From: Candidatus Pacearchaeota archaeon CG_4_10_14_0_2_um_filter_35_33
Lineage (GTDB): Archaea; Nanobdellota; Nanobdellia; Pacearchaeales; GW2011-AR1
Assembly: GCA_002792635.1 (NCBI GenBank)
Contig: PFOR01000015.1
Coordinates: forward strand, 6,744-70,743
Direction: 5' to 3'
DNA length: 64,000 nt
The notes beneath the pieces are model-generated. The model searched no databases. It was not told the origin of the DNA and saw only the letters and a list, made by a program, of their open reading frames with translations. This document shows, piece after piece, positions 6,594 to 53,061 of the stretch. Within the stretch, counting starts at the first letter, position 1. Each line of letters starts with the position of its first letter. The translations under genes were made by a program, and so were the position numbers.

Positions 6594-7127
6594 ATGGGAT
6601 TGATAGCTTCGGTTCTTCCGAGAGATGAGTTTGATAGCCTCCTTCTAATTTATGATATAAAAATTCGGTGATTTAAGAGTAGGTTCGTCTGGTGGGAAGG
6701 TTAAATCGGGAGAAACTCCAAGGAAGTGTGGAATTAGAGAACTAAAAGAAGAACTTGATATCAAAAAGTTCTTGTGTTTTATTCCATTAAAGTGTGGGGC
6801 TTGTTTGAACTTTTGGATGCTCAAGGTTGCATTCATTCATGCACTAAAGTATATGGTTTTCTGCATCGGCAACCTTGACATAACAGTTAGACTTGATAGA
6901 TTTATAGGCACTTATAGAACAACTTCTCCTGAAGGAGATTTCCTAGCATTTACTTATTTTACAACAATAATAGATGGCAGCCGAAAATAATGGAGCCTAG
7001 GAAGATAGGCCATTATGATTGGTTTGACCTTGAATCGATAGAGAGATTGGCAGAAAAAACAGGGACAGTTAATCCTAATTTAATAAGTCCGTTGTCAGAG
7101 ATTAAAAGATACATCGAGGGAAACTAA
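6594..7127 (+). pseudogene. Nudix hydrolase disrupted by two homopolymer frameshifts and a 126-nt repeat insertion
   Basis: Nudix box GGKVKSGETPRKCGIRELKEELDI. The frame breaks at A-run 6659..6663 and at the A-run near 6985. The repeat element occupies 6758..6883 in-frame. Confidence 0.7.
6758..6883 (-). repeat. MITE-like modular repeat, copy A (full length, inside the Nudix gene)
   Basis: The reverse complement is near-identical to 16599..16726. It differs by a few substitutions and a 2-nt indel in the CCACAC-TTTA-GTGTGG hairpin. Confidence 0.85.
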
Positions 7128-8101
7128 TCCTTTTTCCTTTCGTGCTCTTCGACATAACCACCGATAACTGTTAATGGTGCTTTAATCGTTCCGTGCGATT
7201 GATAGTTTTCCAGGATGATGTGTTCTGGTTTTATATTTTCAAGAGATGTTGCTTCAGGACTTATCTTAAGTTTAGCAAAGGGTAATGGTTCTCTTGAAAT
7301 TTGTTCATTTACCTGATTAAAGTGATTTTCATATATGTGAACATCTCCAAAAGTATGAATAAACTCTCCAGGTTCATATCCGGCAAGATGTGCTAGGATA
7401 TGTGTAAGCAAAGCGTAAGAAGCAATATTAAATGGCACTCCAAGAAAAACATCTGCAGACCTTTGATATAAATGCAATGACAATTTGCCATTACTAACGC
7501 TTACCTGATACATGTTGTGACAGATTGGGAATCTACATGCCTCTTCAGGTTTTGCCATATCGTACAAGTAAGGCGGATTCCATGAATTTACAATAGCATT
7601 ATGGCAGTGAGGATCTTGTTTGACTTCATTTAAAACCCATTGTAATTGGTCTATTTTTCTGCCATCATTAGCAGGCCAACTTCTCCATAACTCTCCATAA
7701 ATATGTTTCAAAACACCATGTTTCTGAGCAAACTCATCATCATTTTTAATCCTGGAAATAAATTCTTCCTTAGTCATCTCCGGCAATTCACCCTTGTCAG
7801 ATTTCATCTTATACAATTTATACGGATAATCATCCCAAATATGGACATTGTTATCCACAAGATATTTGATATTATTCATACCCTTAAGAAACCAAAATAG
7901 TTCATGTAAAACACCATTCCAATACACTTTTTTTGTTGTTAATAATGGGAACCCTTTAGATAAGTCAAATCTCAATTGTTTTCCCAACCGGCTGTATGTT
8001 TTGACTTTAGTCTTTAAATCAACCTGCTCAGCACCATTATCCCTGATGTCTCTTAGAAGGTCTAGGTATTGCTTTTCAGGATGCCTCTCCCCCTTTTCCA
8101 T
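7124..8101 (-). CDS. thyA: Thymidylate synthase (ThyA type)
   Basis: 325 aa. Has the ..RFPICHNMYQ.. active-site Cys region and DVFLGVPFNIASYALL. Confidence 0.93.
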   Translation of the reverse strand: MEKGERHPEKQYLDLLRDIRDNGAEQVDLKTKVKTYSRLGKQLRFDLSKGFPLLTTKKVYWNGVLHELFWFLKGMNNIKYLVDNNVHIWDDYPYKLYKMKSDKGELPEMTKEEFISRIKNDDEFAQKHGVLKHIYGELWRSWPANDGRKIDQLQWVLNEVKQDPHCHNAIVNSWNPPYLYDMAKPEEACRFPICHNMYQVSVSNGKLSLHLYQRSADVFLGVPFNIASYALLTHILAHLAGYEPGEFIHTFGDVHIYENHFNQVNEQISREPLPFAKLKISPEATSLENIKPEHIILENYQSHGTIKAPLTVIGGYVEEHERKKD

Positions 8102-11068: not shown

Positions 11069-12214
11069 ATGTCAAAAGAGCTTGTTATTATTGCAGGAAT
11101 TGCGAAGAATAATGTTATTGGGCAAGGTAATAAACTGCCGTGGCATTTGAAAGAGGATTTGAAAAGATTTAAGGAACTAACATTTGGCCATCCCATGATT
11201 ATGGGTAGAAAGACTTTTGAATCAATCCTTGAAATGCTTGGTAGTCCATTGCCTGGGAGAACATCAATAATATTAACAAACCAGCAGAGTTATAATCATC
11301 CAGATGCTATAACAACTCATTCATTGGATGAAGCGATAAAGAAAGCACATGAAATATCAGATAAGGCATTTATCATCGGCGGGCAATCAATTTACGAACA
11401 GGCATTGCCGTTGGCAGATAAACTCGAAATTACTCACGTACACAGAAACTTTGAAGGGGATGCTTTCTTCCCTGAGATAAAAGGGGATGATTGGCTTGAA
11501 ATTAAGAGACGGGATTTTGAAGGTGAAAATCTCGGATACACATTTTCAACATATGAAAAAAGACCGCAAGCAATTAAAAAAAATAGAAAAGGAATGTTTA
11601 TTGTAGTAGAGGGTATTGATGGCTCTGGGAAATCAACACAAATAAAGAACCTCGCATATCATATTTTTAGCAAAAGTAAATATCATCATATAATTTTAAC
11701 AAGAAATCCATATAAGAATGTCAACATCAGGGATATATTGCATCAAGATTCAAATCCGTATTCGCAGGCAGAAAAACTTGCAGATTCTTTCATAGCAGAT
11801 AGGACGCAACAAGCGGAAGAGATTATCCTTCCAAATCTAGAGAAGGGACATTTTGTAATTTCAGATAGATATAAGTTATCAACAATAATCTACCAAGCAA
11901 CACAAGGCATGGATATGGAAGAATTAATTGAGAAACAATCTCACTTGCCTGTTCCTGATATGACATTTATCATTGATGTGTCTGTAGAAGAAGCAAAAAG
12001 AAGAATGATGGGTGAAGATGTTTCTATAAGAGGAAAGGAACACAAGTTTGAGGCAGATGTAGGGTTCATGAAAAAACTTAGAGACAATCTCCTAAAAGCA
12101 AAAGACTTGCTATCAGAAAAAGGAGAAAAAGTCTTTGTAATAAACGGGGAAAGAATTCCCGAAGAAATCACCAAAGACATCGCAGACATCTTTGACAGAG
12201 AATTAATTGATTGA
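11069..12214 (+). CDS. folA-tmk: Dihydrofolate reductase fused to thymidylate (dTMP) kinase
   Basis: N-terminal ~165 aa are DHFR-like (IGQGNKLPWHLKEDLKRFKELT..MGRKTFESI..IIGGQSIYEQ). The C-terminal part is dTMP kinase (FIVVEGIDGSGKSTQ P-loop, DRY motif in ISDRYKLST). Confidence 0.9.
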   Translation: MSKELVIIAGIAKNNVIGQGNKLPWHLKEDLKRFKELTFGHPMIMGRKTFESILEMLGSPLPGRTSIILTNQQSYNHPDAITTHSLDEAIKKAHEISDKAFIIGGQSIYEQALPLADKLEITHVHRNFEGDAFFPEIKGDDWLEIKRRDFEGENLGYTFSTYEKRPQAIKKNRKGMFIVVEGIDGSGKSTQIKNLAYHIFSKSKYHHIILTRNPYKNVNIRDILHQDSNPYSQAEKLADSFIADRTQQAEEIILPNLEKGHFVISDRYKLSTIIYQATQGMDMEELIEKQSHLPVPDMTFIIDVSVEEAKRRMMGEDVSIRGKEHKFEADVGFMKKLRDNLLKAKDLLSEKGEKVFVINGERIPEEITKDIADIFDRELID

Positions 12215-14332: not shown

Positions 14333-14497
14333 ATGTACAAACCGACAGAAAAGCGAGCAGTTGCATATCTTTCAGTAGCCATAACCTTCGCGGGAATTAC
14401 TGATTATGCAATAGACAGGTTCATGGAACATAGAGAACAAAGAACAGTTCTAAGAACTTCCTCTCTGGAAAACATAAGTGAAAAAAACTCAAATTAA
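14333..14497 (+). CDS. Candidate 54-aa small protein
   Basis: Hand-found ORF MYKPTEKRAVAYLSVAITFAGITDYAIDRF.. in the helicase-glyA gap. No family recognised. Confidence 0.25.
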   Translation: MYKPTEKRAVAYLSVAITFAGITDYAIDRFMEHREQRTVLRTSSLENISEKNSN

Positions 14498-15729
14498 TAA
14501 TAGGGAAACCTTTCGCACAAATTCCTTATTTTCCCCCTTATTATGCCCTTCAACTCTTTGCTTTCCCTAGCTTTAATAACATCAGCCATCCACTTTCCAA
14601 TCTCCTCCATCTCTTTTTCCTTCATTCCACGGGTTGTTAAAACAGGCGTTCCTAAACGCAGTCCGGATGGTTTGAATGGAGTGCTTTCATCATATGGAAC
14701 ACTATTGGCATTACAACAGATTCCAGATTCTTCTAATGCAACAGCAACTTCCCTACCAAGCCCAATTCCAAACGGACGCAAATCAATTAATAAAAGATGG
14801 TTATCAGTTCCGTTTGTTACTAACTTTATGCCCTCATCCATCAAAGTCGAAGCAAGAGCTTTTGCGTTTTTGATTATTTGTTGCGAATATTCCTTGAATT
14901 CTGGTTGCATTGCGTCCTTGAAGGCGATTGCTTTCCCAGCCGTATTATTATTATGGGGGCCTCCCTGCATTCCGGGGAAAACAGCCCTATCAATGTCTTT
15001 AGCATATTTTTCCTTGCATAATATTAATCCACCCCTAGGACCTCTAAGAGTCTTATGGGTGGTTGTCATAACAACATCAGTATAAGGCACGGGATTTTCT
15101 AGAACACCTCCAGCAATTAAACCAGAAATATGGGAAATATCTGCTAAATGAATTGCGTCAACTTCTTCCGCAATTTTCTGGAATCTTTTAAAGTCAATAT
15201 TTCTTGGATAAGCAGTTAATCCAGATATGATTAACCTTGGCTTTTCTCGTAAAGCTATTTCTCTAATCTTGCCATAATCTAATAACTCAGTTTCTTTATC
15301 AACACCATAACTAACTGCTTGATAGATTTTCCCTGAAAAATTAACCTTGCTTCCATGCGTTAAATGCCCTCCACAAGCTAAATCCAGACCCATAAACTTC
15401 TCGCCCGGCTTCAAAAAAGCAAGAAAAACAGCAGCATTTGCCGGACTCCCAGATAATGGCTGAACATTAGCGTGTTCTGCTCCAAATAATTTCTTGGCTC
15501 TGTCAATAGCAATCTTCTCTATATTATCAACATGCTCATTCCCTTGATAATATCTCTTAAAGGGATAACCTTCAGAATACTTGTTCATCAATACAGACCC
15601 ACAAGCCTCCAGAACAGCAGGAGAAACATAATTTTCAGAAGGAATCATATTTAACACGGATTTCTGTCTTTCCAGTTCCTGATTCATATACCCAAAAACT
15701 TCAGGGTCTGCCTCTTTTATGGATTCCAT
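14494..15729 (-). CDS. glyA: Serine hydroxymethyltransferase
   Basis: 411 aa with ..GGHLTHGS.. and the PLP-lysine region TTTHKTLRGPRGG. Confidence 0.95.
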   Translation of the reverse strand: MESIKEADPEVFGYMNQELERQKSVLNMIPSENYVSPAVLEACGSVLMNKYSEGYPFKRYYQGNEHVDNIEKIAIDRAKKLFGAEHANVQPLSGSPANAAVFLAFLKPGEKFMGLDLACGGHLTHGSKVNFSGKIYQAVSYGVDKETELLDYGKIREIALREKPRLIISGLTAYPRNIDFKRFQKIAEEVDAIHLADISHISGLIAGGVLENPVPYTDVVMTTTHKTLRGPRGGLILCKEKYAKDIDRAVFPGMQGGPHNNNTAGKAIAFKDAMQPEFKEYSQQIIKNAKALASTLMDEGIKLVTNGTDNHLLLIDLRPFGIGLGREVAVALEESGICCNANSVPYDESTPFKPSGLRLGTPVLTTRGMKEKEMEEIGKWMADVIKARESKELKGIIRGKIRNLCERFPYY

Positions 15730-16392: not shown

Positions 16393-16598
16393 TACTTCCA
16401 TTACAAGAGATAACTAAATTATTAAAACTATGCCTTTAACATCTTAATAAGAAAATTCAATCCTCTTTCTATAAATTCAATTTTCTCATCCCTGCTTAAC
16501 AATACAAATTTTTCCCTATTAAACTCCGGCTCTGTAGGCTTTGCCAGTTCCATAAGTTTAATCTATGAACTTTCTTTATAAATCATCGGAGAAATTTT

Positions 16599-16726
16599 TT
16601 ATGTCAAGGTTGCCGATGCAGAAAACCATATACTTTAGTGCATGGATGAATGCAACCTTGAGCATCCAAAAGTTCAAACAAGCCCCACACTTTAGTGTGG
16701 AGTAAAACACAAGAACTTTTTGATAT
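16599..16726 (+). repeat. MITE-like modular repeat, copy B (full length)
   Basis: TTATGTCAAGGTTGC..GCAACCTTGAGCATCCAAAAGTTCAAACAAGCCCCACACTTTAGTGTGGAGTAAAACACAAGAACTTTTTGATAT. Contains two hairpin modules. Confidence 0.85.
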
Positions 16727-16845
16727 TAAGAATGACTGTTTGCTGACCTGCGGAAGAAGTATCAAGACTTATGGATATGTTAACTAAAGAAGATTGATTT
16801 GATTAATAGGAAAATCTTTAAAAAGAGCATTTTATTTTTGATGAT

Positions 16846-23794: not shown

Positions 23795-24171
23795 TTCCTA
23801 ATAAGACGGAGAAGTTTCTGTGCTAGACTGTTACATATTTATAATCCTATGTGTTGATTTCTTCAGGAATCCCATAGTTCTCGTTTCATTGATTTCATTA
23901 TAATCTGCCCAAAGAGGTATAATCCCCTGCATATAAGCCATTTGTTAAATAGGTCTATAAATCATACCTCTTTATAGTTTGGAAATTCTGTAATCTCGGA
24001 TAACTTGCACCTGAATCAAAGATAATTAAGGTTGTCTTGATATCTTGTGGAAATCATCAGCATCCATAAACTCTCCTAAATGATTGCATTAGTCACAATC
24101 ATATCTCTTTCAGTTTTTGTATTCTGGTTCTGCTGTTCTGCAATAGGAAAAATTTTCATTTACTGTTTTGT

Positions 24172-24255
24172 TTATGTCAAGGTTACCTGAGCATCCAAAA
24201 GTTCAAACAAACCCCACACTTTAGTGTGGAGTAAAACACAAGAACTTTTTGATAT
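24172..24255 (+). repeat. MITE-like modular repeat, copy C (lacks the large internal hairpin loop)
   Basis: TTATGTCAAGGTTACCTGAGCATCCAAAAGTTCAAACAAACCCCACACTTTAGTGTGGAGTAAAACACAAGAACTTTTTGATAT. Confidence 0.85.
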
Positions 24256-24376
24256 AATAAGGAGAATGCAAGCCATTATGCCTCTATCAAGACAGTTATC
24301 CTTATGCTCCCAGAATAGTGTAATTAATTAAAAAAAGAAAATTAGAGAGTCCTAAATTAAAACTCTCAAAAAAAAA

Positions 24377-26387: not shown

Positions 26388-26471
26388 TGAAACTGGGGCG
26401 TGAAACTAGCCTCATAAGATTTAGAAAATCTTAACAAAGCAAGGGTTTCACTGTGTGAAACTAGTTTCACA
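26388..26471. promoter_or_regulatory. Divergent control region with an 18-bp palindrome and extra half-sites
   Basis: Perfect palindrome TGTGAAACTAGTTTCACA at 26454..26471. Extra half-sites GTTTCAC at 26445..26451, GTGAAACTAG at 26400..26409 and TGAAACT at 26388..26394. TATA-like CTTAAATAAAA lies downstream. Confidence 0.65.
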
Positions 26472-29063: not shown

Positions 29064-29107
29064 GAGCGCAGCGTGGCTTGAGTTGTAAATGCCCCGTAGG
29101 ACTAAAA

Positions 29108-29309
29108 TTTAGTGCAACGATGCCGAAGGGAAAACCCTAAAAAATAGTAGATTTTTGGGGCGCCAAAAACTGAAAGTTTTTTAGCGAATCAAAGTTTTTG
29201 AGAATGTCGTTTTATACGATTTTGAAATAATATTTTTTTGGGTGGGCTATGTATTAGAGAGACGCGCGCTTTTTTTGTTTCTTTTTTCTAAAAAGAAAAT
29301 GAGGAGTTC
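29108..29309 (+). repeat. 202-bp direct repeat, copy 1
   Basis: 201/202 identical to 33459..33660; the single difference is g29162 versus a33523. Looser similarity extends ~10 nt further. Contains hairpins AAAAACT-GAA-AGTTTTT and TTTCTTTTT-TCT-AAAAAGAAA. Confidence 0.95.
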
Positions 29310-29403: not shown

Positions 29404-29670
29404 CTACTTTTTATTTAGTGCTTTTCTCAGATTAATTGAGCCATCGCAACAATTTCTCAATTGATATGAAGAGCTTTTTGGAAAAAAGGCATTGATTACT
29501 CTCTTTCCATTTTTTCTAACGAGATTTATAGCAGGAATAAAATCTGCATCAACAACACTATTCACTACTTTAGCCGAAATAATCCCCTCTAAATCAACAT
29601 GGCTTATCAAAACAATTTTATCTTTATCAGTTAAATTTTTGACAAAATCAAAAAAACCTTCTTTCGCTTC
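29404..29670 (-). pseudogene. N-terminal remnant of a DHH-family (RecJ/NrnA-like) phosphoesterase
   Basis: ..KEGFFDFVKNLTDKDKIVLISHVDLEGIISAKVV.. resembles the DHH motif I/II region. There is no in-frame ATG for the upstream part, and only ~90 aa remain. It ends near the repeat boundary. Confidence 0.4.
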
Positions 29671-29679
29671 CTATTTCAA

Positions 29680-30345
29680 TCATTCCAACTTCTCCATAAT
29701 AATGGCCTTGATATTTTTTTCCTTGCACAATGCAATAAACCTTTCAGCATCTTTTAAAGTTCCAGCAACACCCGCACCATAATGCATAGGTATCGCCAAA
29801 TCAGGACTCAAAACACTGGCGGCCTCAGCCGCTTGCTCTGCAGTCATAACATACTTCCCCGAAACAGGCAATAAAGCTACAAACTTATTACCCTGTTTCC
29901 CATGTCCTGTAAGTTTATGCATCTCAGGAATAAAATCGCTATCTCCTGCATGATAAAAAACATTATTGCCTATTTTTATAACAAAGCCTATCCAGCCCTC
30001 TTCCTTAGGATGATAATCTTTTCTTATATTGTAAGCCGGCACTGCTTCAATCCTTATTTCGTCTAAATCTAATTTATATCCTGCTTCCACAATCTGCAAA
30101 TCAATTCCTTCTATCTTTAATATTTTACTTTGAACATCCGCAGTACACACCACAACAGTCCCAGGTTCAACCAACTTTTCTATATCTTCAATACTACAAT
30201 GGTCATAATGTCCATGTGTTATTAAAATCAAATCCACTTTCCCGATATCTTTAATCTTGTAGGGGTCTATAACAATCCTCTTTCTGTTTCTTATCAAAAA
30301 TCCTGAGTGCCCCAAAAACTCTATATCTATATCTCCAATCTTCAT
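29680..30345 (-). CDS. Metallo-beta-lactamase-fold hydrolase
   Basis: 221 aa with LILITHGHYDHC (HxHxDH motif). Confidence 0.85.
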   Translation of the reverse strand: MKIGDIDIEFLGHSGFLIRNRKRIVIDPYKIKDIGKVDLILITHGHYDHCSIEDIEKLVEPGTVVVCTADVQSKILKIEGIDLQIVEAGYKLDLDEIRIEAVPAYNIRKDYHPKEEGWIGFVIKIGNNVFYHAGDSDFIPEMHKLTGHGKQGNKFVALLPVSGKYVMTAEQAAEAASVLSPDLAIPMHYGAGVAGTLKDAERFIALCKEKNIKAIIMEKLE

Positions 30346-30406: not shown

Positions 30407-31930
30407 TCAACTGGGTCTATCCTGATTAGGCCATGGAACATTACATTCCTGGAGATAGTTCGGCCTAGATTCTACAGTAGAAACCTTGCTCTTAGGATTC
30501 CGCACAACATTCAGAGTATATTCAATATGTGGCACTTGTTCATTCCACTTCAATTTCCTAGTAGCTACATCATTTATCATTTTCAATATCCCATATTCAT
30601 CACTCTGTTGGTCATTAGGGCTCACCATCTTAACAGTAAGCAGAGAATTTGTCAAACCATGAACTCTAGCCTCTTTGCTTCCAATATCTTTATACTGCCA
30701 AAGTGTATATGGATATACTTCATCAATCTTTGAAATATATTGAGAATATCTATGGATAGTTTGACATAGTTTAAGCAATTTAGCATCAAATCCTGGATCA
30801 TTTTGGTCCCCTAATCCTCCAACTAAAACCAAATCCTCTTTATTTGCAACAGGCATAATTGTAAAATCCATGCCTGGCCATCTTTCATGATAATGGTCTA
30901 TCAAATCTAGTATATCCTTACAATTTCCTCCCCCTAAATATTCTCCTCCAGAAAACTTACAAGGAATCACATTATCATAATAAGACAATCTATAATTTAC
31001 ACCCCCAATCTTATCATTTTCAACAACTAGCTCTTCCCCATTCCACCCCCTTGTAATGGGACTTCCAGATTCTGGAATTATGGTAAATTTAGCACCGGGA
31101 TGTTTGTACAAGATATCTCCAACTCTCCAAGCATTATACCAAGTTCCAAAACTTCCTGCAGAGCTTCCAGCCATTATAATTTCGGCTCTATCCAAATCAA
31201 AATCTCTCTCTTTGAGCAACTCAAAAGTCTTGTCCAGTCCAAGTTCTATATTGATACCACCATCATGAATAATACTTATGTACAATTTATCAATTATTAT
31301 TCTTCCATCTTCTTCATGAGTCACTGTTCTAACATACGGATAATTTTTTTCTATCTCTTGAAAATTAATCTTATTATTAATCAAATTCTCATAACTTTTA
31401 ACCATTCCAGTCTCTCCGGTGAAATCATATTCTATTGGCTCTGTCAATCTTCCAGAATGAAAATCTTGAGTACAATAAGGAAGAATAACCCAATTAGCAT
31501 CTTTAACAAAATCATTATTATCAGGATGGTCTAAAAAGATAAAACTATTATCTTCATTAAATTGTTTTGGAGGATTAATCAATCCTAATGTGAAGCCTAC
31601 ATTTGTTCTGAACTTACCATCTTTGTCAACCATTGTATCTCCTCCTCCCGGAAGCCAAATCACCAATCTATTATTGGGCTTCCCATTAATCTTAGCAGGT
31701 CCTGCCGAAAAACCCATTACATATTCTTCTCCATTTCCACATTTGGCTCCTGAAACAGGAACTACTTGCCAATCTTCTCTCTGTCCTTCAACTATTGGAG
31801 GATTTGCCCCATTATTATCTTTTCCTCTTTTACCTCTCTTTACTCCAATAAAAACTAAACTAATTATAAGAATAATAAGAATTAAGACAACAATAATCCC
31901 AATATAAATCTCTTTTTCTTTCTTCTTCAT
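30407..31930 (-). CDS. Secreted esterase, pectin-acetylesterase/Notum-like
   Basis: 507 aa with an N-terminal anchor. WLPGGGD, LPYCTQDFHSG and MAGSSAGSFG resemble the PAE-family GGG / YCDG.SF.G / G.SAGG motifs. Confidence 0.5.
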   Translation of the reverse strand: MKKKEKEIYIGIIVVLILIILIISLVFIGVKRGKRGKDNNGANPPIVEGQREDWQVVPVSGAKCGNGEEYVMGFSAGPAKINGKPNNRLVIWLPGGGDTMVDKDGKFRTNVGFTLGLINPPKQFNEDNSFIFLDHPDNNDFVKDANWVILPYCTQDFHSGRLTEPIEYDFTGETGMVKSYENLINNKINFQEIEKNYPYVRTVTHEEDGRIIIDKLYISIIHDGGINIELGLDKTFELLKERDFDLDRAEIIMAGSSAGSFGTWYNAWRVGDILYKHPGAKFTIIPESGSPITRGWNGEELVVENDKIGGVNYRLSYYDNVIPCKFSGGEYLGGGNCKDILDLIDHYHERWPGMDFTIMPVANKEDLVLVGGLGDQNDPGFDAKLLKLCQTIHRYSQYISKIDEVYPYTLWQYKDIGSKEARVHGLTNSLLTVKMVSPNDQQSDEYGILKMINDVATRKLKWNEQVPHIEYTLNVVRNPKSKVSTVESRPNYLQECNVPWPNQDRPS

Positions 31931-32467: not shown

Positions 32468-32522
32468 ATCAAAAAATTCTTACGTGTTTGAACTTTTGGA
32501 TGCTCAGGTAACCTTGACATAA
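32468..32522 (-). repeat. MITE-like modular repeat, copy D (minimal; both internal modules absent)
   Basis: The reverse complement reads TTATGTCAAGGTTACCTGAGCATCCAAAAGTTCAAACACGTAAGAATTTTTTGAT. Confidence 0.7.
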
Positions 32523-32582
32523 AAAGCCATAGGAGGATATAAAAAGTCTAAATTCGAGAAATGATAGAATGTAAACACCTAA

Positions 32583-33167
32583 ATGGTAGCTAAAAAAGAA
32601 AGCTTGGAATTGATGACTGATAAAGAATTAGCCCAATTAGCCCAAAGAGTTGTTGAAGGAGATGATGAAGCATTTGATAGAATAATGCAGATTTATTCGC
32701 CATATTTTTACAAATTATGTTTAAATTTCGTACATTCTAAGGACAAAGCAGATGACATTCACCAAGAGGCTACAATAAAGATGTGGGAAAAAATGAGTCA
32801 ATACGACTCCTCGAGAACCTTCATAAAATGGGCAACTGCGATTTATAAAAACACAGCAATAGACTATCTAAGAAAAGTCAAGTCGAGAAATAATATTCAC
32901 TATGTAAACAACATAGATTTCTCAAGATATGCAACACCAGAACGAACAACCTCAATTTCAGAAGAGGAAAGGTTAGACCTGGAGAAGGGTATAACTTCAT
33001 TACCTGAAACTCCTAGAGAAGTAATAACAGTTATCTATTTTAGAGGATACTCTTTATCCGAAACTGCCAGATTATTGGGAAAACCTGGCGGTACAATAAA
33101 ATCAGCATTAAGTCGGGGTTTAAATAAATTAAGAGAGAAAAGTGAATTAGAAAAACAAATAGCTTAA
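32583..33167 (+). CDS. Bacterial-type ECF (sigma-70 family) RNA polymerase sigma factor
   Basis: Region 2: DDIHQEATIKMWEKMSQYDSSRTFIKWATAIYKNTAIDYLRK. Region 4: LPETPREVITVIYFRGYSLSETARLLGKPGGTIKSALSRGLNKLRE. Confidence 0.85.
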   Translation: MVAKKESLELMTDKELAQLAQRVVEGDDEAFDRIMQIYSPYFYKLCLNFVHSKDKADDIHQEATIKMWEKMSQYDSSRTFIKWATAIYKNTAIDYLRKVKSRNNIHYVNNIDFSRYATPERTTSISEEERLDLEKGITSLPETPREVITVIYFRGYSLSETARLLGKPGGTIKSALSRGLNKLREKSELEKQIA

Positions 33168-33169
33168 AT

Positions 33170-33352
33170 TCAGTTCTTCACAAAACTTTCTACAACTAAA
33201 ATAGGAAACAAGAGAGTAGCATCCCCAAAAACTTTAACACTCTTAGCCTCTTTTTTGATTTTTCCCCAACATCTATAATCCACCTCTTCTGATGATTCTG
33301 GACAATGATAAGGCAAATCTCTAATCTTGTTAAAAACTTGAATGGTATCCAT
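33170..33352 (-). CDS. Small hypothetical ORF (possibly a gene fragment)
   Basis: 60-aa ORF with no motif recognised. Confidence 0.3.
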
Positions 33353-33458
33353 ATTTTTTTGATAAACATTAAAATATTAAAAGGTTTTCCATTAGGGTTC
33401 TCAACTTTATTTTATTTAAACCCGGTTAGTTTCGTCCGAATACTTGCAGGGATTACAT

Positions 33459-33660
33459 TTTAGTGCAACGATGCCGAAGGGAAAACCCTAAAAAATAGTA
33501 GATTTTTGGGGCACCAAAAACTGAAAGTTTTTTAGCGAATCAAAGTTTTTGAGAATGTCGTTTTATACGATTTTGAAATAATATTTTTTTGGGTGGGCTA
33601 TGTATTAGAGAGACGCGCGCTTTTTTTGTTTCTTTTTTCTAAAAAGAAAATGAGGAGTTC
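33459..33660 (+). repeat. 202-bp direct repeat, copy 2
   Basis: See copy 1 (29108..29309). Confidence 0.95.
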
Positions 33661-33688: not shown

Positions 33689-33961
33689 TTATTCCTCTTC
33701 TTCAGAAGTGCTTAACATATTTTTTAAGAAATTTCCAAAATTTCCAGTTCTTTGGTTTTTTGCTTTTTCCAAAGAACCAACAGATTTTACTCTAATATAA
33801 TCCTTAACATAAGCCAAAACTCCATAAACAAATTCTTTTGGAGATTCGGAAGTATAAAGTGGCTCAACTTTAAAAGAATCATCAACAAGCCCTTCTCTCT
33901 TTGCTTCTCTTTCAAATAATTTAAATTTCCAATATTGCGTTGGATTTGTTGCGATTTTCAT
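33689..33961 (-). CDS. Hypothetical protein
   Basis: 90-aa ORF. Confidence 0.45.
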   Translation of the reverse strand: MKIATNPTQYWKFKLFEREAKREGLVDDSFKVEPLYTSESPKEFVYGVLAYVKDYIRVKSVGSLEKAKNQRTGNFGNFLKNMLSTSEEEE

Positions 33962-33965
33962 ATGA

Positions 33966-34442
33966 TTAACTTTTTTTTCTTTTCAACTTTTTTATCGAAT
34001 ATAAAAAATTCTCTAAAGTATCTCTCGATTTTCCTTCAATAATAAAATCAGATGGTTTTAATCCATAGTGTTCTCTTAATTCTTTGTAAATTGAATATTG
34101 CTGTGATTCCTTTTCTGGTCGCCCTCTTTCATCTCTTTGAATTTCCCCACTAACAAGAACATAAGGTTTTGGTTCTTTTGTATGGGAGTGGCTTCTCATA
34201 ACGGTTCCAACTCTTTTTTGGTCTGCTTCTAAAGTTCCTGTTGGAATAACTAAAGATTCAAGAGATTTATTTACAACAAATAAAATAAGAGAAGCCATAA
34301 AGAAAGTTAAGCTAAAAACAAAAAATAAAATATTCTTGATTTCTATATTAGTTCCGATAACTGCTCCTGTAAAAATTATATCAACAGATAAAAATAGAAA
34401 AACAAATCCTACAAGTAATAAAACTAAAGACAACTTCTTCAT
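33966..34442 (-). CDS. Membrane-anchored DUF218/YdcF-like protein
   Basis: ..YVLVSGEIQ..KPSDFIIEGKSRDTLENFLYS.. resembles the DUF218 ..SG...S.NT.EN pattern. Start taken at MKKLSLVLLL (the listed ORF extends to 34520). Confidence 0.5.
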   Translation of the reverse strand: MKKLSLVLLLVGFVFLFLSVDIIFTGAVIGTNIEIKNILFFVFSLTFFMASLILFVVNKSLESLVIPTGTLEADQKRVGTVMRSHSHTKEPKPYVLVSGEIQRDERGRPEKESQQYSIYKELREHYGLKPSDFIIEGKSRDTLENFLYSIKKLKRKKS

Positions 34443-34502
34443 AATATTTTTATGAAAAGAGGATATAAAAAGATATTTAAAACAAAAAGAGATTGTGTTT
34501 TT

Positions 34503-34760
34503 ATGAAAAAGAGATTTCAAAGAAAAATATTATCAACTTTTGCATTTTCTGTAGTTGCATCAGTTTTAATGATTGTTCACGGAATTTTTTTAGATTTAGA
34601 TTTTGCTCAAATAAAAAGATTAAGTTTAGAAGGTTTTGCATTTACTTTTGTATTGGTCTTTATTGGTTTGCTTATTCTTGAAAAAATATTCAATCTTGAG
34701 GAAGACGAAGAAATTATTAAAATAAAAAAAAGATTGAATAAGATAGAAAAGAAAAAATAA
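34503..34760 (+). CDS. Small membrane protein
   Basis: Two helices and a K/E-rich tail. Start taken at MKKRFQRKIL (the listed ORF begins at 34452). Confidence 0.4.
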   Translation: MKKRFQRKILSTFAFSVVASVLMIVHGIFLDLDFAQIKRLSLEGFAFTFVLVFIGLLILEKIFNLEEDEEIIKIKKRLNKIEKKK

Positions 34761-35150
34761 TTCTCGGCGTGAGCCGACTATTTGTCCGAAGGACTAAAAA
34801 CCTCTCAGATTAAATGAAAAATTTGGGTGAGTGATAACGAACCTCTTAACCATTGTTAGAAAAAGTGCGAAGCATTTTGTTGTTTTTCTCGTCGGTCGGA
34901 TAAAAGAAGTTTTTTCCTTTATTTTTGAGGCGACAATCTGCTATTTAGGGGCGGTGGTCGGGGGTTTCAGAGTTCACTTTAATTGAAATGAATCGCGGTT
35001 ATGTCTGGGTGAGCGTAGCGAAAGTCTGCAAGACGGCACCGAGCACCACAACGAAGTGAGGAGCGGAGAGTTAAAATCACTTTTCAGGGCGGGCAATGTA
35101 TTAGAGAAGTTGTTGTGTATTTTTGTTTTCTTTTTCGGAAAAAAAGAGAT
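34761..35150. other. Non-coding, locally G+C-richer segment with stable hairpins, ending in a diverged partial third copy of the 202-bp repeat
   Basis: TCGGC-GTGA-GCCGA at 34764..34777 (GNRA loop) and GTCC-GAA-GGAC at 34784..34794. GGGCGGGCAATGTATTAGAGA (35087..35107) parallels GGGTGGGCTATGTATTAGAGA of the repeat. Only short spurious ORFs are present. Confidence 0.5.
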
Positions 35151-35197
35151 TTTCAAGAAACCGAAAGATTTTTATAGTTATACAAGTATGTATACCC

Positions 35198-35476
35198 ATG
35201 CCACAAGAAACATTAAGAAAAAACATTTTGCACTATCCACAATTAGATACTATTCTAATGGTTGAGGAATTTATTAGAGATAACTCTGGAGAATATAAGA
35301 AAAAATCTCTCTGGGAAGCTCTGCCTAGAAAGATGATTTATCAGACTTTTTGCGTGATATTTGACTACTTACTAGAATCTGGAAAAATAACACAAGACAA
35401 AGAGGGTTGGGTTGTTTGGATTTGGAATCCAGAATTAGTAAGAAAATATCTTTCTAAATCCTATTTATCAAGATGA
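35198..35476 (+). CDS. Small winged-helix-like protein; putative antitoxin/partner of the downstream RelE-like gene
   Basis: ATG 35198 lies ~25 nt after the TATA-like TTTTATAG. It has a 4-nt ATGA overlap with the toxin gene. The partner role is inferred from position only. Confidence 0.45.
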   Translation: MPQETLRKNILHYPQLDTILMVEEFIRDNSGEYKKKSLWEALPRKMIYQTFCVIFDYLLESGKITQDKEGWVVWIWNPELVRKYLSKSYLSR

Positions 35477-35802
35477 AATCGCAAATAAAATTTGCTGAAG
35501 AAAAATTGAAAGAAAGTTTTGAGAGACTTAAAGATTCAAAAACAGAAGATAAAAAACTTTACGAGTGGATAAATAGAGCATTAAATGATTTAGAAGAAAA
35601 CGCTTTTTGTGGAATAAGAATACAAAAAAGATTAATCCTGAAAGTTTACATTGAAAAATATATCATTGATAATTTATGGAAATATGACTTGCCCAAAGGT
35701 TGGAGATTGATTTATTCTGTTGCAAATGGGGAAGTTTGTGTTTTATCCATAATTCTTGAATGGATAGACCATAAAGATTATGAAAGAAGATTTGGGTATT
35801 AA
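35473..35802 (+). CDS. RelE/ParE-superfamily toxin
   Basis: ..LWKYDLPKGWRLIYSVANGEVCVLSIILEWIDHKDYERRFGY matches the RelE/ParE C-terminal core (..RiiY.v....v.il.i..H..Y). Confidence 0.7.
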   Translation: MKSQIKFAEEKLKESFERLKDSKTEDKKLYEWINRALNDLEENAFCGIRIQKRLILKVYIEKYIIDNLWKYDLPKGWRLIYSVANGEVCVLSIILEWIDHKDYERRFGY

Positions 35803-35804
35803 TC

Positions 35805-36065
35805 TTGTTCAAAGAAGATTTAAGACACGAGTTTATTTCCTCACAAAGTAGTCTGCAGACAATTTTGAAGAAAGCTGGAAGGAAAGCAGAGATTGAAAGG
35901 GTTCATCCACATATGTTAAGGCATAGCTTTGTCACTCATTTGATTGAAAATGGATATGCGGTGAATGACGTTCAGGTACTATTGGGGCATAAGAGCCCTG
36001 AAACTACAATGATTTCCCTGCATGCTTCTGGGAACATGATTAATGTTAGAAGCCCCTTGGATTAA
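35805..36065 (+). pseudogene. Tyrosine recombinase (XerC/D-like integrase) C-terminal remnant
   Basis: VHPHMLRHSFVTHLIENGYAVNDVQVLLGHKSPETTMISLHAS. No ATG and no N-terminal domain. The catalytic Tyr position reads Ser (canonical ..TT.IYTH). Confidence 0.75.
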
Positions 36066-36066
36066 C

Positions 36067-36086
36067 TTGTGAAACTAGTTTCACAA
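36067..36086. promoter_or_regulatory. Perfect 20-bp palindrome TTGTGAAACTAGTTTCACAA (operator candidate)
   Basis: The 18-bp core at 36068..36085 ends 35 nt before ATG 36121. TATA-like AATATATATTA lies between. Confidence 0.65.
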
Positions 36087-40530: not shown

Positions 40531-40550
40531 TTGTGGAACCAGTTTCACAA
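40531..40550. promoter_or_regulatory. Operator-like palindrome variant TTGTGGAACCAGTTTCACAA
   Basis: Two mismatches to the consensus. The core at 40532..40549 ends 35 nt before ATG 40585. TATA-like TTATTAAATAG lies between. It sits between divergent genes. Confidence 0.55.
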
Positions 40551-40584
40551 ACATTATTAAATAGTCTTTTTTATTAATGCTAGA

Positions 40585-46675: not shown

Positions 46676-46819
46676 TCCCCTCACCAAGAGTCGAACTTGG
46701 GTAACTCGGGTTCTGCAATGTTCTAACGAACACACACTGCTTGCGTTTCATCCTTTTCCCGAGGGAATGTCCACGCTAATCCTCTACAGCCGAGTGCTCT
46801 ACCGTTGAGCTATGAGGGG
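46676..46819 (-). tRNA. tRNA-Tyr (anticodon GTA) with ~73-nt intron at 37/38
   Basis: Acceptor CCCCTCA/TGAGGGG (C1-G72, the archaeal Tyr identity pair). D arm GCTC-AACGGTA-GAGC. Anticodon stem CTCGG..CCGAG is split by the intron. T arm CCAAG-TTCGACT-CTTGG. Confidence 0.85.
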
Positions 46820-52932: not shown

Positions 52933-53061
52933 TGCGGTGTCGGGGAATCGAACCCCGGTCTGCGCGTTTTTACCTTGCCCTCATCTTCGCAAGGTGAAAG
53001 CTTGAGAATCGTAGATTCTCATTGTTGGCAACGCGCTATTCTACCACTAAATTAACACCGC
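52933..53061 (-). tRNA. tRNA-Gly (anticodon GCC) with 58-nt intron at 37/38
   Basis: Acceptor GCGGTGT/ACACCGC. Anticodon stem GCGCG..CGCGC with loop TTGCCA|intron|A. T arm CGGGG-TTCGATT-CCCCG. The intron holds two hairpins: GAGAATC-TAC-GATTCTC and CCTTGC-GAAGATGAGG-GCAAGG. Confidence 0.85.

Follow-up and report, generated by a model that had tools for sequence, protein, structure and literature searches.

The sigma factor gene and its product

The window, by which we mean the whole stretch of DNA that was analysed, comprises 64 000 nt of contig PFOR01000015.1 from Candidatus Pacearchaeota archaeon CG_4_10_14_0_2_um_filter_35_33, and the subject of this report is a gene within it for a protein of the extracytoplasmic function (ECF) type of the sigma-70 family. 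Bacteria start transcription with sigma factors whereas archaea use TBP, TFB and TFE, and an earlier annotation of the same DNA made from its letters (the original prediction) had presented the gene as a puzzle. We find that the gene is a bona fide member of the sigma-70 family, that the contig carrying it is archaeal, and that in related archaea sigma genes of the same type stand at a fixed site between dhs (deoxyhypusine synthase) and ftsZ. The gene itself is as follows.

32583-33167, + strand: ECF-type sigma-70 family gene (from the open reading frame, hidden Markov models, a PDB match, an AlphaFold2 model, Foldseek and hallmark residues)

The open reading frame (ORF) encodes 194 aa, among them the motifs quoted in the original prediction. 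Of the Pfam hidden Markov models (HMMs), Sigma70_r2 (PF04542) scored 48.2 bits (cut-off 24) over residues 37-100, Sigma70_r4 (PF04545) 43.6 bits (cut-off 24.1), Sigma70_r4_2 (PF08281) 39.7 bits (cut-off 25.7) and Sigma70_ECF 25.9 bits (cut-off 21.1), and NCBIfam TIGR02937 reached 93.6 bits (cut-off 42.9), aligning residues 29-186 with positions 1-164 of its 165. The more specific ECF equivalog and subfamily models (SigW, SigM, SigY, SigV, SigK and others) all remained under their cut-offs, the highest score being that of PRK12543 (94.7 bits versus a cut-off of 197), with SigW at 87.5 versus 209. By sequence the closest PDB entry is SigW (5wuq, 6e-17), and SigW, AlgU and sigmaE are the nearest solved structures. 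An AlphaFold2 (AF2) model built from a 70-sequence alignment, with a predicted local distance difference test score (pLDDT) of 87.6, has two helical domains, sigma2 (approximately residues 13-107) and sigma4 (approximately 127-193), joined by a disordered linker (108-126); region 1.1 and region 3 are not present, nor are further Pfam domains. When the model was compared with the PDB by Foldseek, every one of the first 22 matches was an ECF sigma factor, and sigma2 aligned with region 2 of Escherichia coli sigmaE (5or5) with a template modelling score (TMt) of 0.84 and a root-mean-square deviation of 2.3 A.

As a hallmark set we took the 40 ECF alignment columns conserved at >=60%. The window sigma matches 32/40 of these, bacterial members averaging 76%, and keeps Q61, W83, D94, R97, L140, E160 and T171 at columns for core binding and for recognition of the -10 and -35 elements. 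The 194-aa sigma-70 protein with regions 2 and 4 announced by the original prediction is borne out by Pfam, TIGR02937, AF2 and Foldseek alike, and HMM analysis, which was to decide whether the protein belongs to the sigma-70 family at all, placed it above the thresholds for r2, r4 and TIGR02937.

Surroundings of the gene and physical linkage

The features that surround the gene are given below in the order of their coordinates. L021, L022, L023 and L025 are contigs of related archaea, of which L021 and L023 carry a sigma gene of their own.

29099-29309, no strand: direct repeat, copy 1, 211 nt, 98% identical to copy 2
29569-29679, - strand: DHH phosphoesterase 5' remnant (blastn 75%/111 nt to the DHH start in L025)
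29680-30345, - strand: metallo-beta-lactamase (MBL)-fold hydrolase (Pfam Lactamase_B_3; 72% identical to L021 and L023)
30407-31930, - strand: p507, a membrane-anchored protein with weak likeness to pectin acetylesterase (Pfam PAE), 69-70% identical to L021, L022 and L023
32121-32396, - strand: p91, a small conserved protein, 75-89% identical to L021 and L023
32485-32523, - strand: fragment, ~40 nt, resembling a miniature inverted-repeat transposable element (MITE), aligned with copies at 16580-16740, 24110-24270 and 6770-6900
33153-33268, - strand: dhs 3' remnant (PF01916 profile 260-286 of 288)
33450-33660, no strand: direct repeat, copy 2, 211 nt, 98% identical to copy 1
35805-36065, + strand: tyrosine recombinase C-terminal remnant, 86 aa (Pfam Phage_integrase profile 106-168 of 172; PHROG integrase matches)

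An adjacent cognate anti-sigma gene is typical of ECFs, though not universal. None was found adjoining the window sigma gene, whose neighbours are p91 and the dhs remnant, and here too the original prediction was right. Neither the sequence nor the locus of the window sigma contains a signal peptide or a secretion-associated neighbour.

The contig is archaeal, as its thermosome gene, its TATA promoters and the dhs remnant attest. The thermosome (NF041082, 751 bits) has relatives at 81-83% identity in Ca. Pacearchaeota CG1_02_39_14 and CG1_02_32_132. Rfam matches to tRNA at 46676-46819 (- strand, 144 nt) and 52933-53061 (- strand, 129 nt) are both missed by ARAGORN in bacterial mode, and these long tRNAs probably carry introns and are archaeal. 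Of the 14 strongest host-gene cases, 10 have a box of the form TTTATATA or TTTAAATA that ends at -22 or -21, which fits leaderless archaeal promoters. The sequencing runs that hold the window stretch are groundwater and aquifer metagenomes.

Ten independent assemblies (three JGI metagenomes, four NCBI metagenome-assembled genomes, and SPAdes and MEGAHIT assemblies from ENA) agree in gene order and are 99.97-100% identical, on contigs of up to 118 kb, and 73 blocks of a sequence collection contain the exact sigma protein. What might suggest an artefact of assembly or binning, in which the sigma piece would come from a co-assembled bacterium, is that Logan contigs (k=31) split at the repeats and leave the sigma gene alone on a 978-bp piece with repeats on both sides, so that those contigs by themselves prove no linkage. 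The same 978-bp piece, however, also bears the 3' end of the archaeal dhs, and this dhs-sigma junction recurs on related archaeal contigs; the ten assemblies, from differing samples and assemblers, cross the repeats in the same order; and the depth of the sigma piece follows that of its flanks in four runs (9.2 vs 9.4-12.1; 58.5 vs 55.6-57.5; 21 vs 26.3-27.9; 22.7 vs 21.6-26.6). We regard an artefact as effectively refuted, and with it the chimeric assembly that had been among the options of the original prediction.

A site between dhs and ftsZ in related archaea

Homologues of p507 occur on long contigs at 67-70% identity. L021 (138 kb) and L023 (22 kb) carry the gene string AspRS (aspartyl-tRNA synthetase, two copies) - p91 - p507 - MBL - (DHH) - dhs(+) - Sigma70(-) - ftsZ - nitroreductase - ... 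- eIF-1A. In L025 (362 kb), a more distant relative in which p507 is 47% identical, the same string is present with a gap of 76 nt between dhs and ftsZ that is free of sigma, and an ECF HMM found no sigma gene within 10 kb on either side of that gap. The 3' ends of sigma and dhs overlap by 4 nt in L021 and lie 10 nt apart in L023 and 2 nt apart in the window; the sigma gene is thus convergent with dhs, abutting or overlapping its stop, in 3/3 sigma-bearing genomes. Contigs L024, L026 and L027 are either not syntenic or stop short of dhs and ftsZ. A search for an empty site through the 161-aa gene of the copper cluster returned L019, which has just that gene and CopA in common with the window.

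The sigma genes of L021 and L023 are each preceded by a TATA-like box of the CTTAAAAA class at -31/-32 to -21/-22, the same class and position as in the p91 and dhs promoters. On both contigs sigma and ftsZ are divergent, and the region between them measures exactly 119 nt (L021 16231-16349, L023 14252-14370). The conserved distal TATTTAAAG box and the GGAGG leader there belong to ftsZ, and a proximal TTAAAAA box belongs to sigma.

Divergence and database relatives of the sigma protein

The archaeal sigmas are only 27-36% identical between lineages, versus 62-90% for their neighbours. For the pairs window-L021, window-L023 and L021-L023, respectively, identities are 32/27/36% for sigma, 75/89/77% for p91, 70/69/78% for p507 and 72/72/79% for MBL; for L021-L023 only, they are 84% for deoxyhypusine synthase, 90% for FtsZ and 62% for nitroreductase. 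At the DNA level the window sigma coding sequence has no nucleotide similarity to that of the relatives, the flanks being 72-81% identical. All three sigmas have the same residue at 30 of the 194 positions, and 20 of these 30 fall in the 40 hallmark columns (hypergeometric p = 1.5e-9), the invariant hallmarks including G26, D27, D58, Q61, W83, N90, P141, R145, G155, P168, G170, T171, K173, L183 and R184. The hallmark columns matched number 32/40 in L021 and 29/40 in L023. This pattern indicates that purifying selection acts on the canonical sigma residues and that the rest has diverged to saturation. The decay proposed by the original prediction does not agree with 32/40 hallmarks in the window sigma, nor with their selective retention across three archaeal lineages.

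Among 1.84 billion cluster representatives the only match under 1e-30 was a near-identical protein (P0001) with the single substitution R22T; apart from it, no representative exceeds 36-40% identity to the window sigma. The next-ranked matches in an exhaustive HMMER search were bacterial ECFs at 94 bits and 34-36% identity, and a word-based homology search agreed, giving the one near-identical protein and otherwise <=35% identity. No relatives of 40-99% identity were found among ~15 billion proteins, the contigs of species-representative genomes gave no close relative and bacterial ECFs at 22-28% only, and tblastn against phages and plasmids gave nothing above 33% identity. The nearest relatives are all in bacterial contexts; one of them adjoins genes for a type II secretion system (T2SS), a secretin and an autotransporter, and another overlaps a downstream 424-aa gene in the usual anti-sigma position. 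An ultimate origin of bacterial type, as implied by the horizontal acquisition put forward in the original prediction, is in keeping with these contexts.

In phylogenetic trees the sigmas of L021 and L023 pair firmly (support 100/99). Under LG+G4, the tree constrained to a clade of all three archaeal sigmas was the best tree found (+18.3 log-likelihood units (lnL), with a P value in the approximately unbiased test (p-AU) of 0.73). The three also have in common the N-terminal motif M[VI]A.[KR][DE], noticed post hoc, with which 0/156 bacterial ECFs start; M[VI]A starts 1/51 host genes.

Rearrangement of the block in the window genome

Read on the p507 strand, the order in the window is dhs' - sigma / MITE fragment / p91 - p507 - MBL - DHH'. 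This is the string p91 - p507 - MBL - DHH - dhs - sigma in rotated form with every orientation retained; in the relatives, too, DHH comes after MBL. Most of DHH and dhs has been lost from the rotated block, which sits inside a copper-resistance cluster. The dhs remnant is convergent with the window sigma gene, the two stop codons being 2 nt apart, and is 79-81% (protein) and 75-78% (nucleotide) identical to the dhs 3' ends of L021 and L023. p91, a protein without Pfam match, transmembrane segment or zinc motif, diverges from the window sigma gene and still has its canonical promoter (-32..-22). The MITE-like fragment marks the new junction between the upstream regions of sigma and p91, where Logan contigs break. 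The 211-nt repeats have approximately twice the depth of the flanks. At 2.6 kb from the sigma gene and outside the repeats, the recombinase remnant forms the right edge of a 7-kb interruption of the copper cluster.

Several particulars of the original prediction can be adjusted accordingly. Direct repeats do flank the block, with a length of 211 nt and not 202 bp; a MITE-like element does lie upstream of the gene at about the 60 nt indicated, but as a fragment of only ~40 nt that ends 59 nt before the ATG; and the 'accessory segment' is an interrupting block between repeats, as described, but not a lone recent insertion, being a relocated native string that includes sigma in relatives. The composition, said to be as AT-rich as that of the neighbouring genes, is indeed so (GC 0.338 vs 0.365 +/- 0.022 for host genes), and the comparison of codon usage with flanking genes that had been recommended gives a host-like result (z = 0.11; GC at third codon positions (GC3), z = -1.2; versus 47 host genes). 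By contrast, the 33.7-35.8 kb region is of foreign composition (z = -3 to -6), unlike the sigma block. The block does not have the make-up of mobile-element cargo: 211-nt repeats are present, but the integrase is a remnant only, the sigma codons are host-like and the block is syntenic in relatives.

The MITE-like family has long and short forms (6785-6883, 16599-16726, 24188-24255 and 32485-32523), at which short-read unitigs break, and the long form has an internal hairpin, CAAGGTTGC...GCAACCTTG. A bacterial promoter of the form TTGACA-N18-TATAAA was considered as a relic upstream of the sigma gene and rejected; its TTGACA belongs to the MITE-like fragment, and the site was missing from the output of a neutral scan. 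Next to repeat copy 1, a 67-aa ORF (29404-29607, - strand) retains only the C-terminal end of an NYN domain (profile 103-143 of 145, E = 5e-5) and is without counterpart in the string of the relatives.

Comparison with known sigma factors

Sigma genes without anti-sigma genes in DPANN archaea have been known since 2021. The accessible text of Castelle et al. 2021 (PMC8204110; Front Microbiol 12:660052) describes sigma-70 genes (fam00359) in DPANN genomes, especially those of Woesearchaeota, for which mis-binning was excluded via co-encoded archaeal genes, no anti-sigma factors were found and the mechanism was left unclear; the only factors that this text names for DPANN genomes are archaeal, namely TBP, TFB and TFE (PMC8204110). 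The difficulty that the original prediction saw in a sigma factor with no known partner in archaea stands, and was already published in that article (PMC8204110). The window gene resembles the fam00359 sigmas as the same text presents them, being a sigma-70-class gene on a DPANN chromosome with archaeal markers co-encoded (here the thermosome and the dhs remnant, in ten assemblies) and no anti-sigma gene nearby. It differs in belonging to a Pacearchaeota-type genome, the emphasis of Castelle et al. being on Woesearchaeota, and that text does not describe a dhs/ftsZ site, an empty site, identities of 27-36% with hallmark retention, or a rotation. New here, then, are the fixed dhs-ftsZ site, filled or empty, the divergence with hallmark retention, and the relocation in the window genome.

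With bacterial group 4 ECFs (SigW 5wuq; sigmaE 1or7, 5or5; P. aeruginosa AlgU 8z6g) the window sigma shares the sigma2-linker-sigma4 arrangement, length, hallmarks and fold, and it differs from them in its archaeal host, in having no co-transcribed anti-sigma gene and in scoring under every equivalog cut-off. Archaea are not mentioned in the ECF reclassification paper. ECF-like sigmas of phages (PHROG phrog_1740; crAss-like 'sigma-W') are likewise small sigma2+sigma4 proteins with no anti-sigma partner, and the profile match is clear (1.4e-29, 104 bits); however, the best identity is 27-30%, no phage genes surround the window sigma gene, and its neighbours in relatives are housekeeping genes.

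Origin, expression and possible role

We hypothesize that the genuine, intact ECF sigma gene of the window was inherited, relocated and put to use as an archaeal-expressed accessory regulator, an explanation that as a whole we favour with moderate confidence. The sigma gene would have been inserted between dhs and ftsZ in the ancestor of the subclade, the empty site persisting in the more distant relative, and at least three lineages would have kept it there, in convergent orientation and right against the dhs stop codon. That there was a single insertion at this site, followed by hyper-divergence, is the component we consider decidedly likely. Selection would have preserved sigma2.1, 2.2, 2.3-2.4, sigma4.1 and the helix-turn-helix of 4.2, the remainder diverging far faster than the neighbouring genes. 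In the window genome the string p91-p507-MBL-DHH-dhs-sigma has been rotated to dhs'-sigma / p91-p507-MBL-DHH', most likely by recombination at repeated elements, with the MITE-like fragment as the new junction and the 211-nt repeats as the ends. The block may have been excised as a circle, or duplicated in tandem and partly deleted, before its integration or fixation between the 211-nt repeats; no circular form of it was seen in the Logan contigs of the runs. The relocation would also have displaced the TATA-like box of sigma from the canonical leaderless position. Two features upstream of the gene bear on this point.

32535-32545, + strand: GGATATAAAAA, the best motif resembling a TATA box and B recognition element (TATA/BRE-like) upstream of the window sigma gene (position weight matrix score 4.1)
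32569-32574, + strand: ATG-TAA start-stop mini-ORF, read from the sequence, out of frame and 8 nt before the sigma ATG

A number of observations weigh against the hypothesis. Upstream of the window sigma gene neither a canonical promoter (TATA at -32..-22) nor a Shine-Dalgarno sequence was found; GGATATAAAAA, at -48..-38, ends 37 nt before the ATG versus the canonical 21 nt, and its score of 4.1 is reached by 33% of random 70-nt windows. The mini-ORF is at the canonical leaderless distance, the TATA-like box ending at -24 relative to it, and could either silence the sigma gene or permit termination-reinitiation. None of the RNA sequencing runs holds the window sigma gene, and judging from the upstream sequence this copy may be poorly expressed. 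The population is clonal, with zero differences within the sigma gene among the ten loci, so that it is uninformative for the ratio of non-synonymous to synonymous substitution rates (dN/dS) and intactness says nothing on recent selection. As to the site, dhs stands without a sigma gene beside it in the close but rearranged relative L022, and no more than two filled sites and a single clean empty one were recovered. The hallmark residues may be kept solely for folding. Finally, under the more careful mixture model LG+C20+F+G4, constraining the three sigmas to a clade costs 7.6 lnL (p-AU 0.26), and the clade appears in 0% of bootstraps.

The observations on expression would be accounted for if relocation from the native promoter region, shared divergently with ftsZ, had silenced the gene and left it as a passenger, unexpressed but not yet decayed, the sigma family being functional in relatives. 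A TATA box at -32..-22 is missing here, yet five neighbours in the block and 10/14 strong host promoters have one; the TATA-like box 37 nt upstream, the lack of a Shine-Dalgarno sequence and the mini-ORF in the leaderless position fit equally well, remnants of dhs, DHH, the NYN-domain gene and the integrase lie all round, and in a clonal population the intact ORF tells nothing of recent selection. Silencing is nevertheless unlikely in our estimation, given that the ORF is intact with 32/40 hallmarks and host-like codon usage where dhs and DHH decayed or were truncated, that some few host genes likewise have displaced TATA boxes or leaders, and that a short-leader mRNA could arise from a purine-rich stretch with TATAAAAA behind it. 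Another alternative concerns descent. The mixture-model tree parts the window sigma from L021 and L023, which leaves room for replacement of the cassette; the dhs-ftsZ site would then be a hot spot at which ECF cassettes are swapped, either by recombination that uses the conserved flanks or by recurrent horizontal transfer, and the window sigma would be a xenolog of the other two. In line with this, the window sigma scores higher with bacterial ECFs (94 bits, 34-36%) than with L021 (75 bits) or L023 (61 bits), its DNA lacks nucleotide similarity where the flanks are 72-81% identical, and no relative of 40-99% identity exists among the ~15 billion proteins. However, the AU test leaves a single clade unrejected under both models (p = 0.26 and 0.73) and the constrained tree is the best under LG+G4; all three sigmas carry the M[VI]A.[KR][DE] motif that is absent from the 156 bacterial ECFs, and all adjoin the dhs stop closely in one and the same orientation; codon usage of the window sigma is fully host-like; and no donor-like bacterial sequence turned up although the same aquifer has been deeply sampled. 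We consider replacement a tenable idea of minor probability.

Also among the options of the original prediction was a role directed at a bacterial partner or host, the sigma being delivered to, or used with, a bacterial RNA polymerase. What speaks for it is that residues contacting bacterial core polymerase and promoter have been kept. Nothing was observed in its support beyond this, there is no signal peptide or secretion-associated neighbour, and the genes flanking sigma in relatives are housekeeping genes; moreover, the described hosts of DPANN archaea are, to our knowledge, other archaea. We judge it highly improbable. Nor would the protein be a subunit of a bacterial holoenzyme within the cell, because no bacterial core RNA polymerase is known from these archaea.

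Returning to the inherited and relocated gene, the sigma protein would be a product of archaeal transcription and translation and would most likely be an accessory, rapidly diversifying transcription regulator that acts through the DNA-binding surfaces of sigma4 and sigma2, either alone or docked on archaeal RNA polymerase. Co-option as a DNA-binding regulator, another of the earlier suggestions, is plausible. The clamp coiled-coil of archaeal RNA polymerase, homologous to the clamp helices of bacterial beta', is used by TFE and Spt4/5. It is interesting to speculate that the sigma2.2 helix and the residues for the -10 and -35 elements still work in the archaeal cell, the protein docking on that coiled-coil as an exchangeable factor for promoter specificity or melting; the chance of this seems to us slim, but if true it would amount to a hybrid bacterial-archaeal mode of initiation. 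On this view, the extreme divergence at a fixed locus would reflect diversifying selection, e.g. through virus/host conflict or rapid rewiring of a regulon.

Intact sigma genes have been an unexplained oddity of DPANN archaea since 2021, and the present one is neither contamination nor decaying junk. Its fixed site, the sigma residues kept and the fast change elsewhere together argue for a real function, probably one driven by conflict or subject to fast rewiring. Filled and empty dhs-ftsZ sites, with three very different alleles, offer a comparative system for a sigma factor without a bacterial polymerase.

Other features of the window

Past repeat copy 2, the region 33689-35802 contains AT-shifted genes (GC 0.22-0.30, GC3 z = -1.7 to -4.9), namely a 90-aa gene, a DUF218-like gene, a 102-aa gene, a 92/117-aa gene and a toxin-like 109-aa gene. 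The population includes a variant without 685 bp (35253-35939), a deletion that removes most of the ParE/YoeB-like 109-aa gene together with the integrase remnant; its joint was seen in runs X1 and X14, and the assembly L004 shows it as well. Within the same region a non-coding patch (34830-35090) is strikingly GC-rich for this genome, and in it Rfam models found nothing at E <= 1 and the folding energy is not in excess (z = +1.4).

Further away, a 381-aa ORF (11069-12214, + strand) fuses dihydrofolate reductase (5-164) with thymidylate kinase (180-371), an unusual combination; it lies near genes for thymidylate synthase (7124-8101) and serine hydroxymethyltransferase (SHMT, 14494-15729) in what amounts to a dTMP-cycle neighbourhood. 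Just upstream of the TATA boxes of copper and thiol-cluster operons, the palindrome TGTGAAACTAGTTTCACA or its variant TGTGGAACCAGTTTCACA recurs at 26454-26471, 36068-36085 and ~40540-40560.

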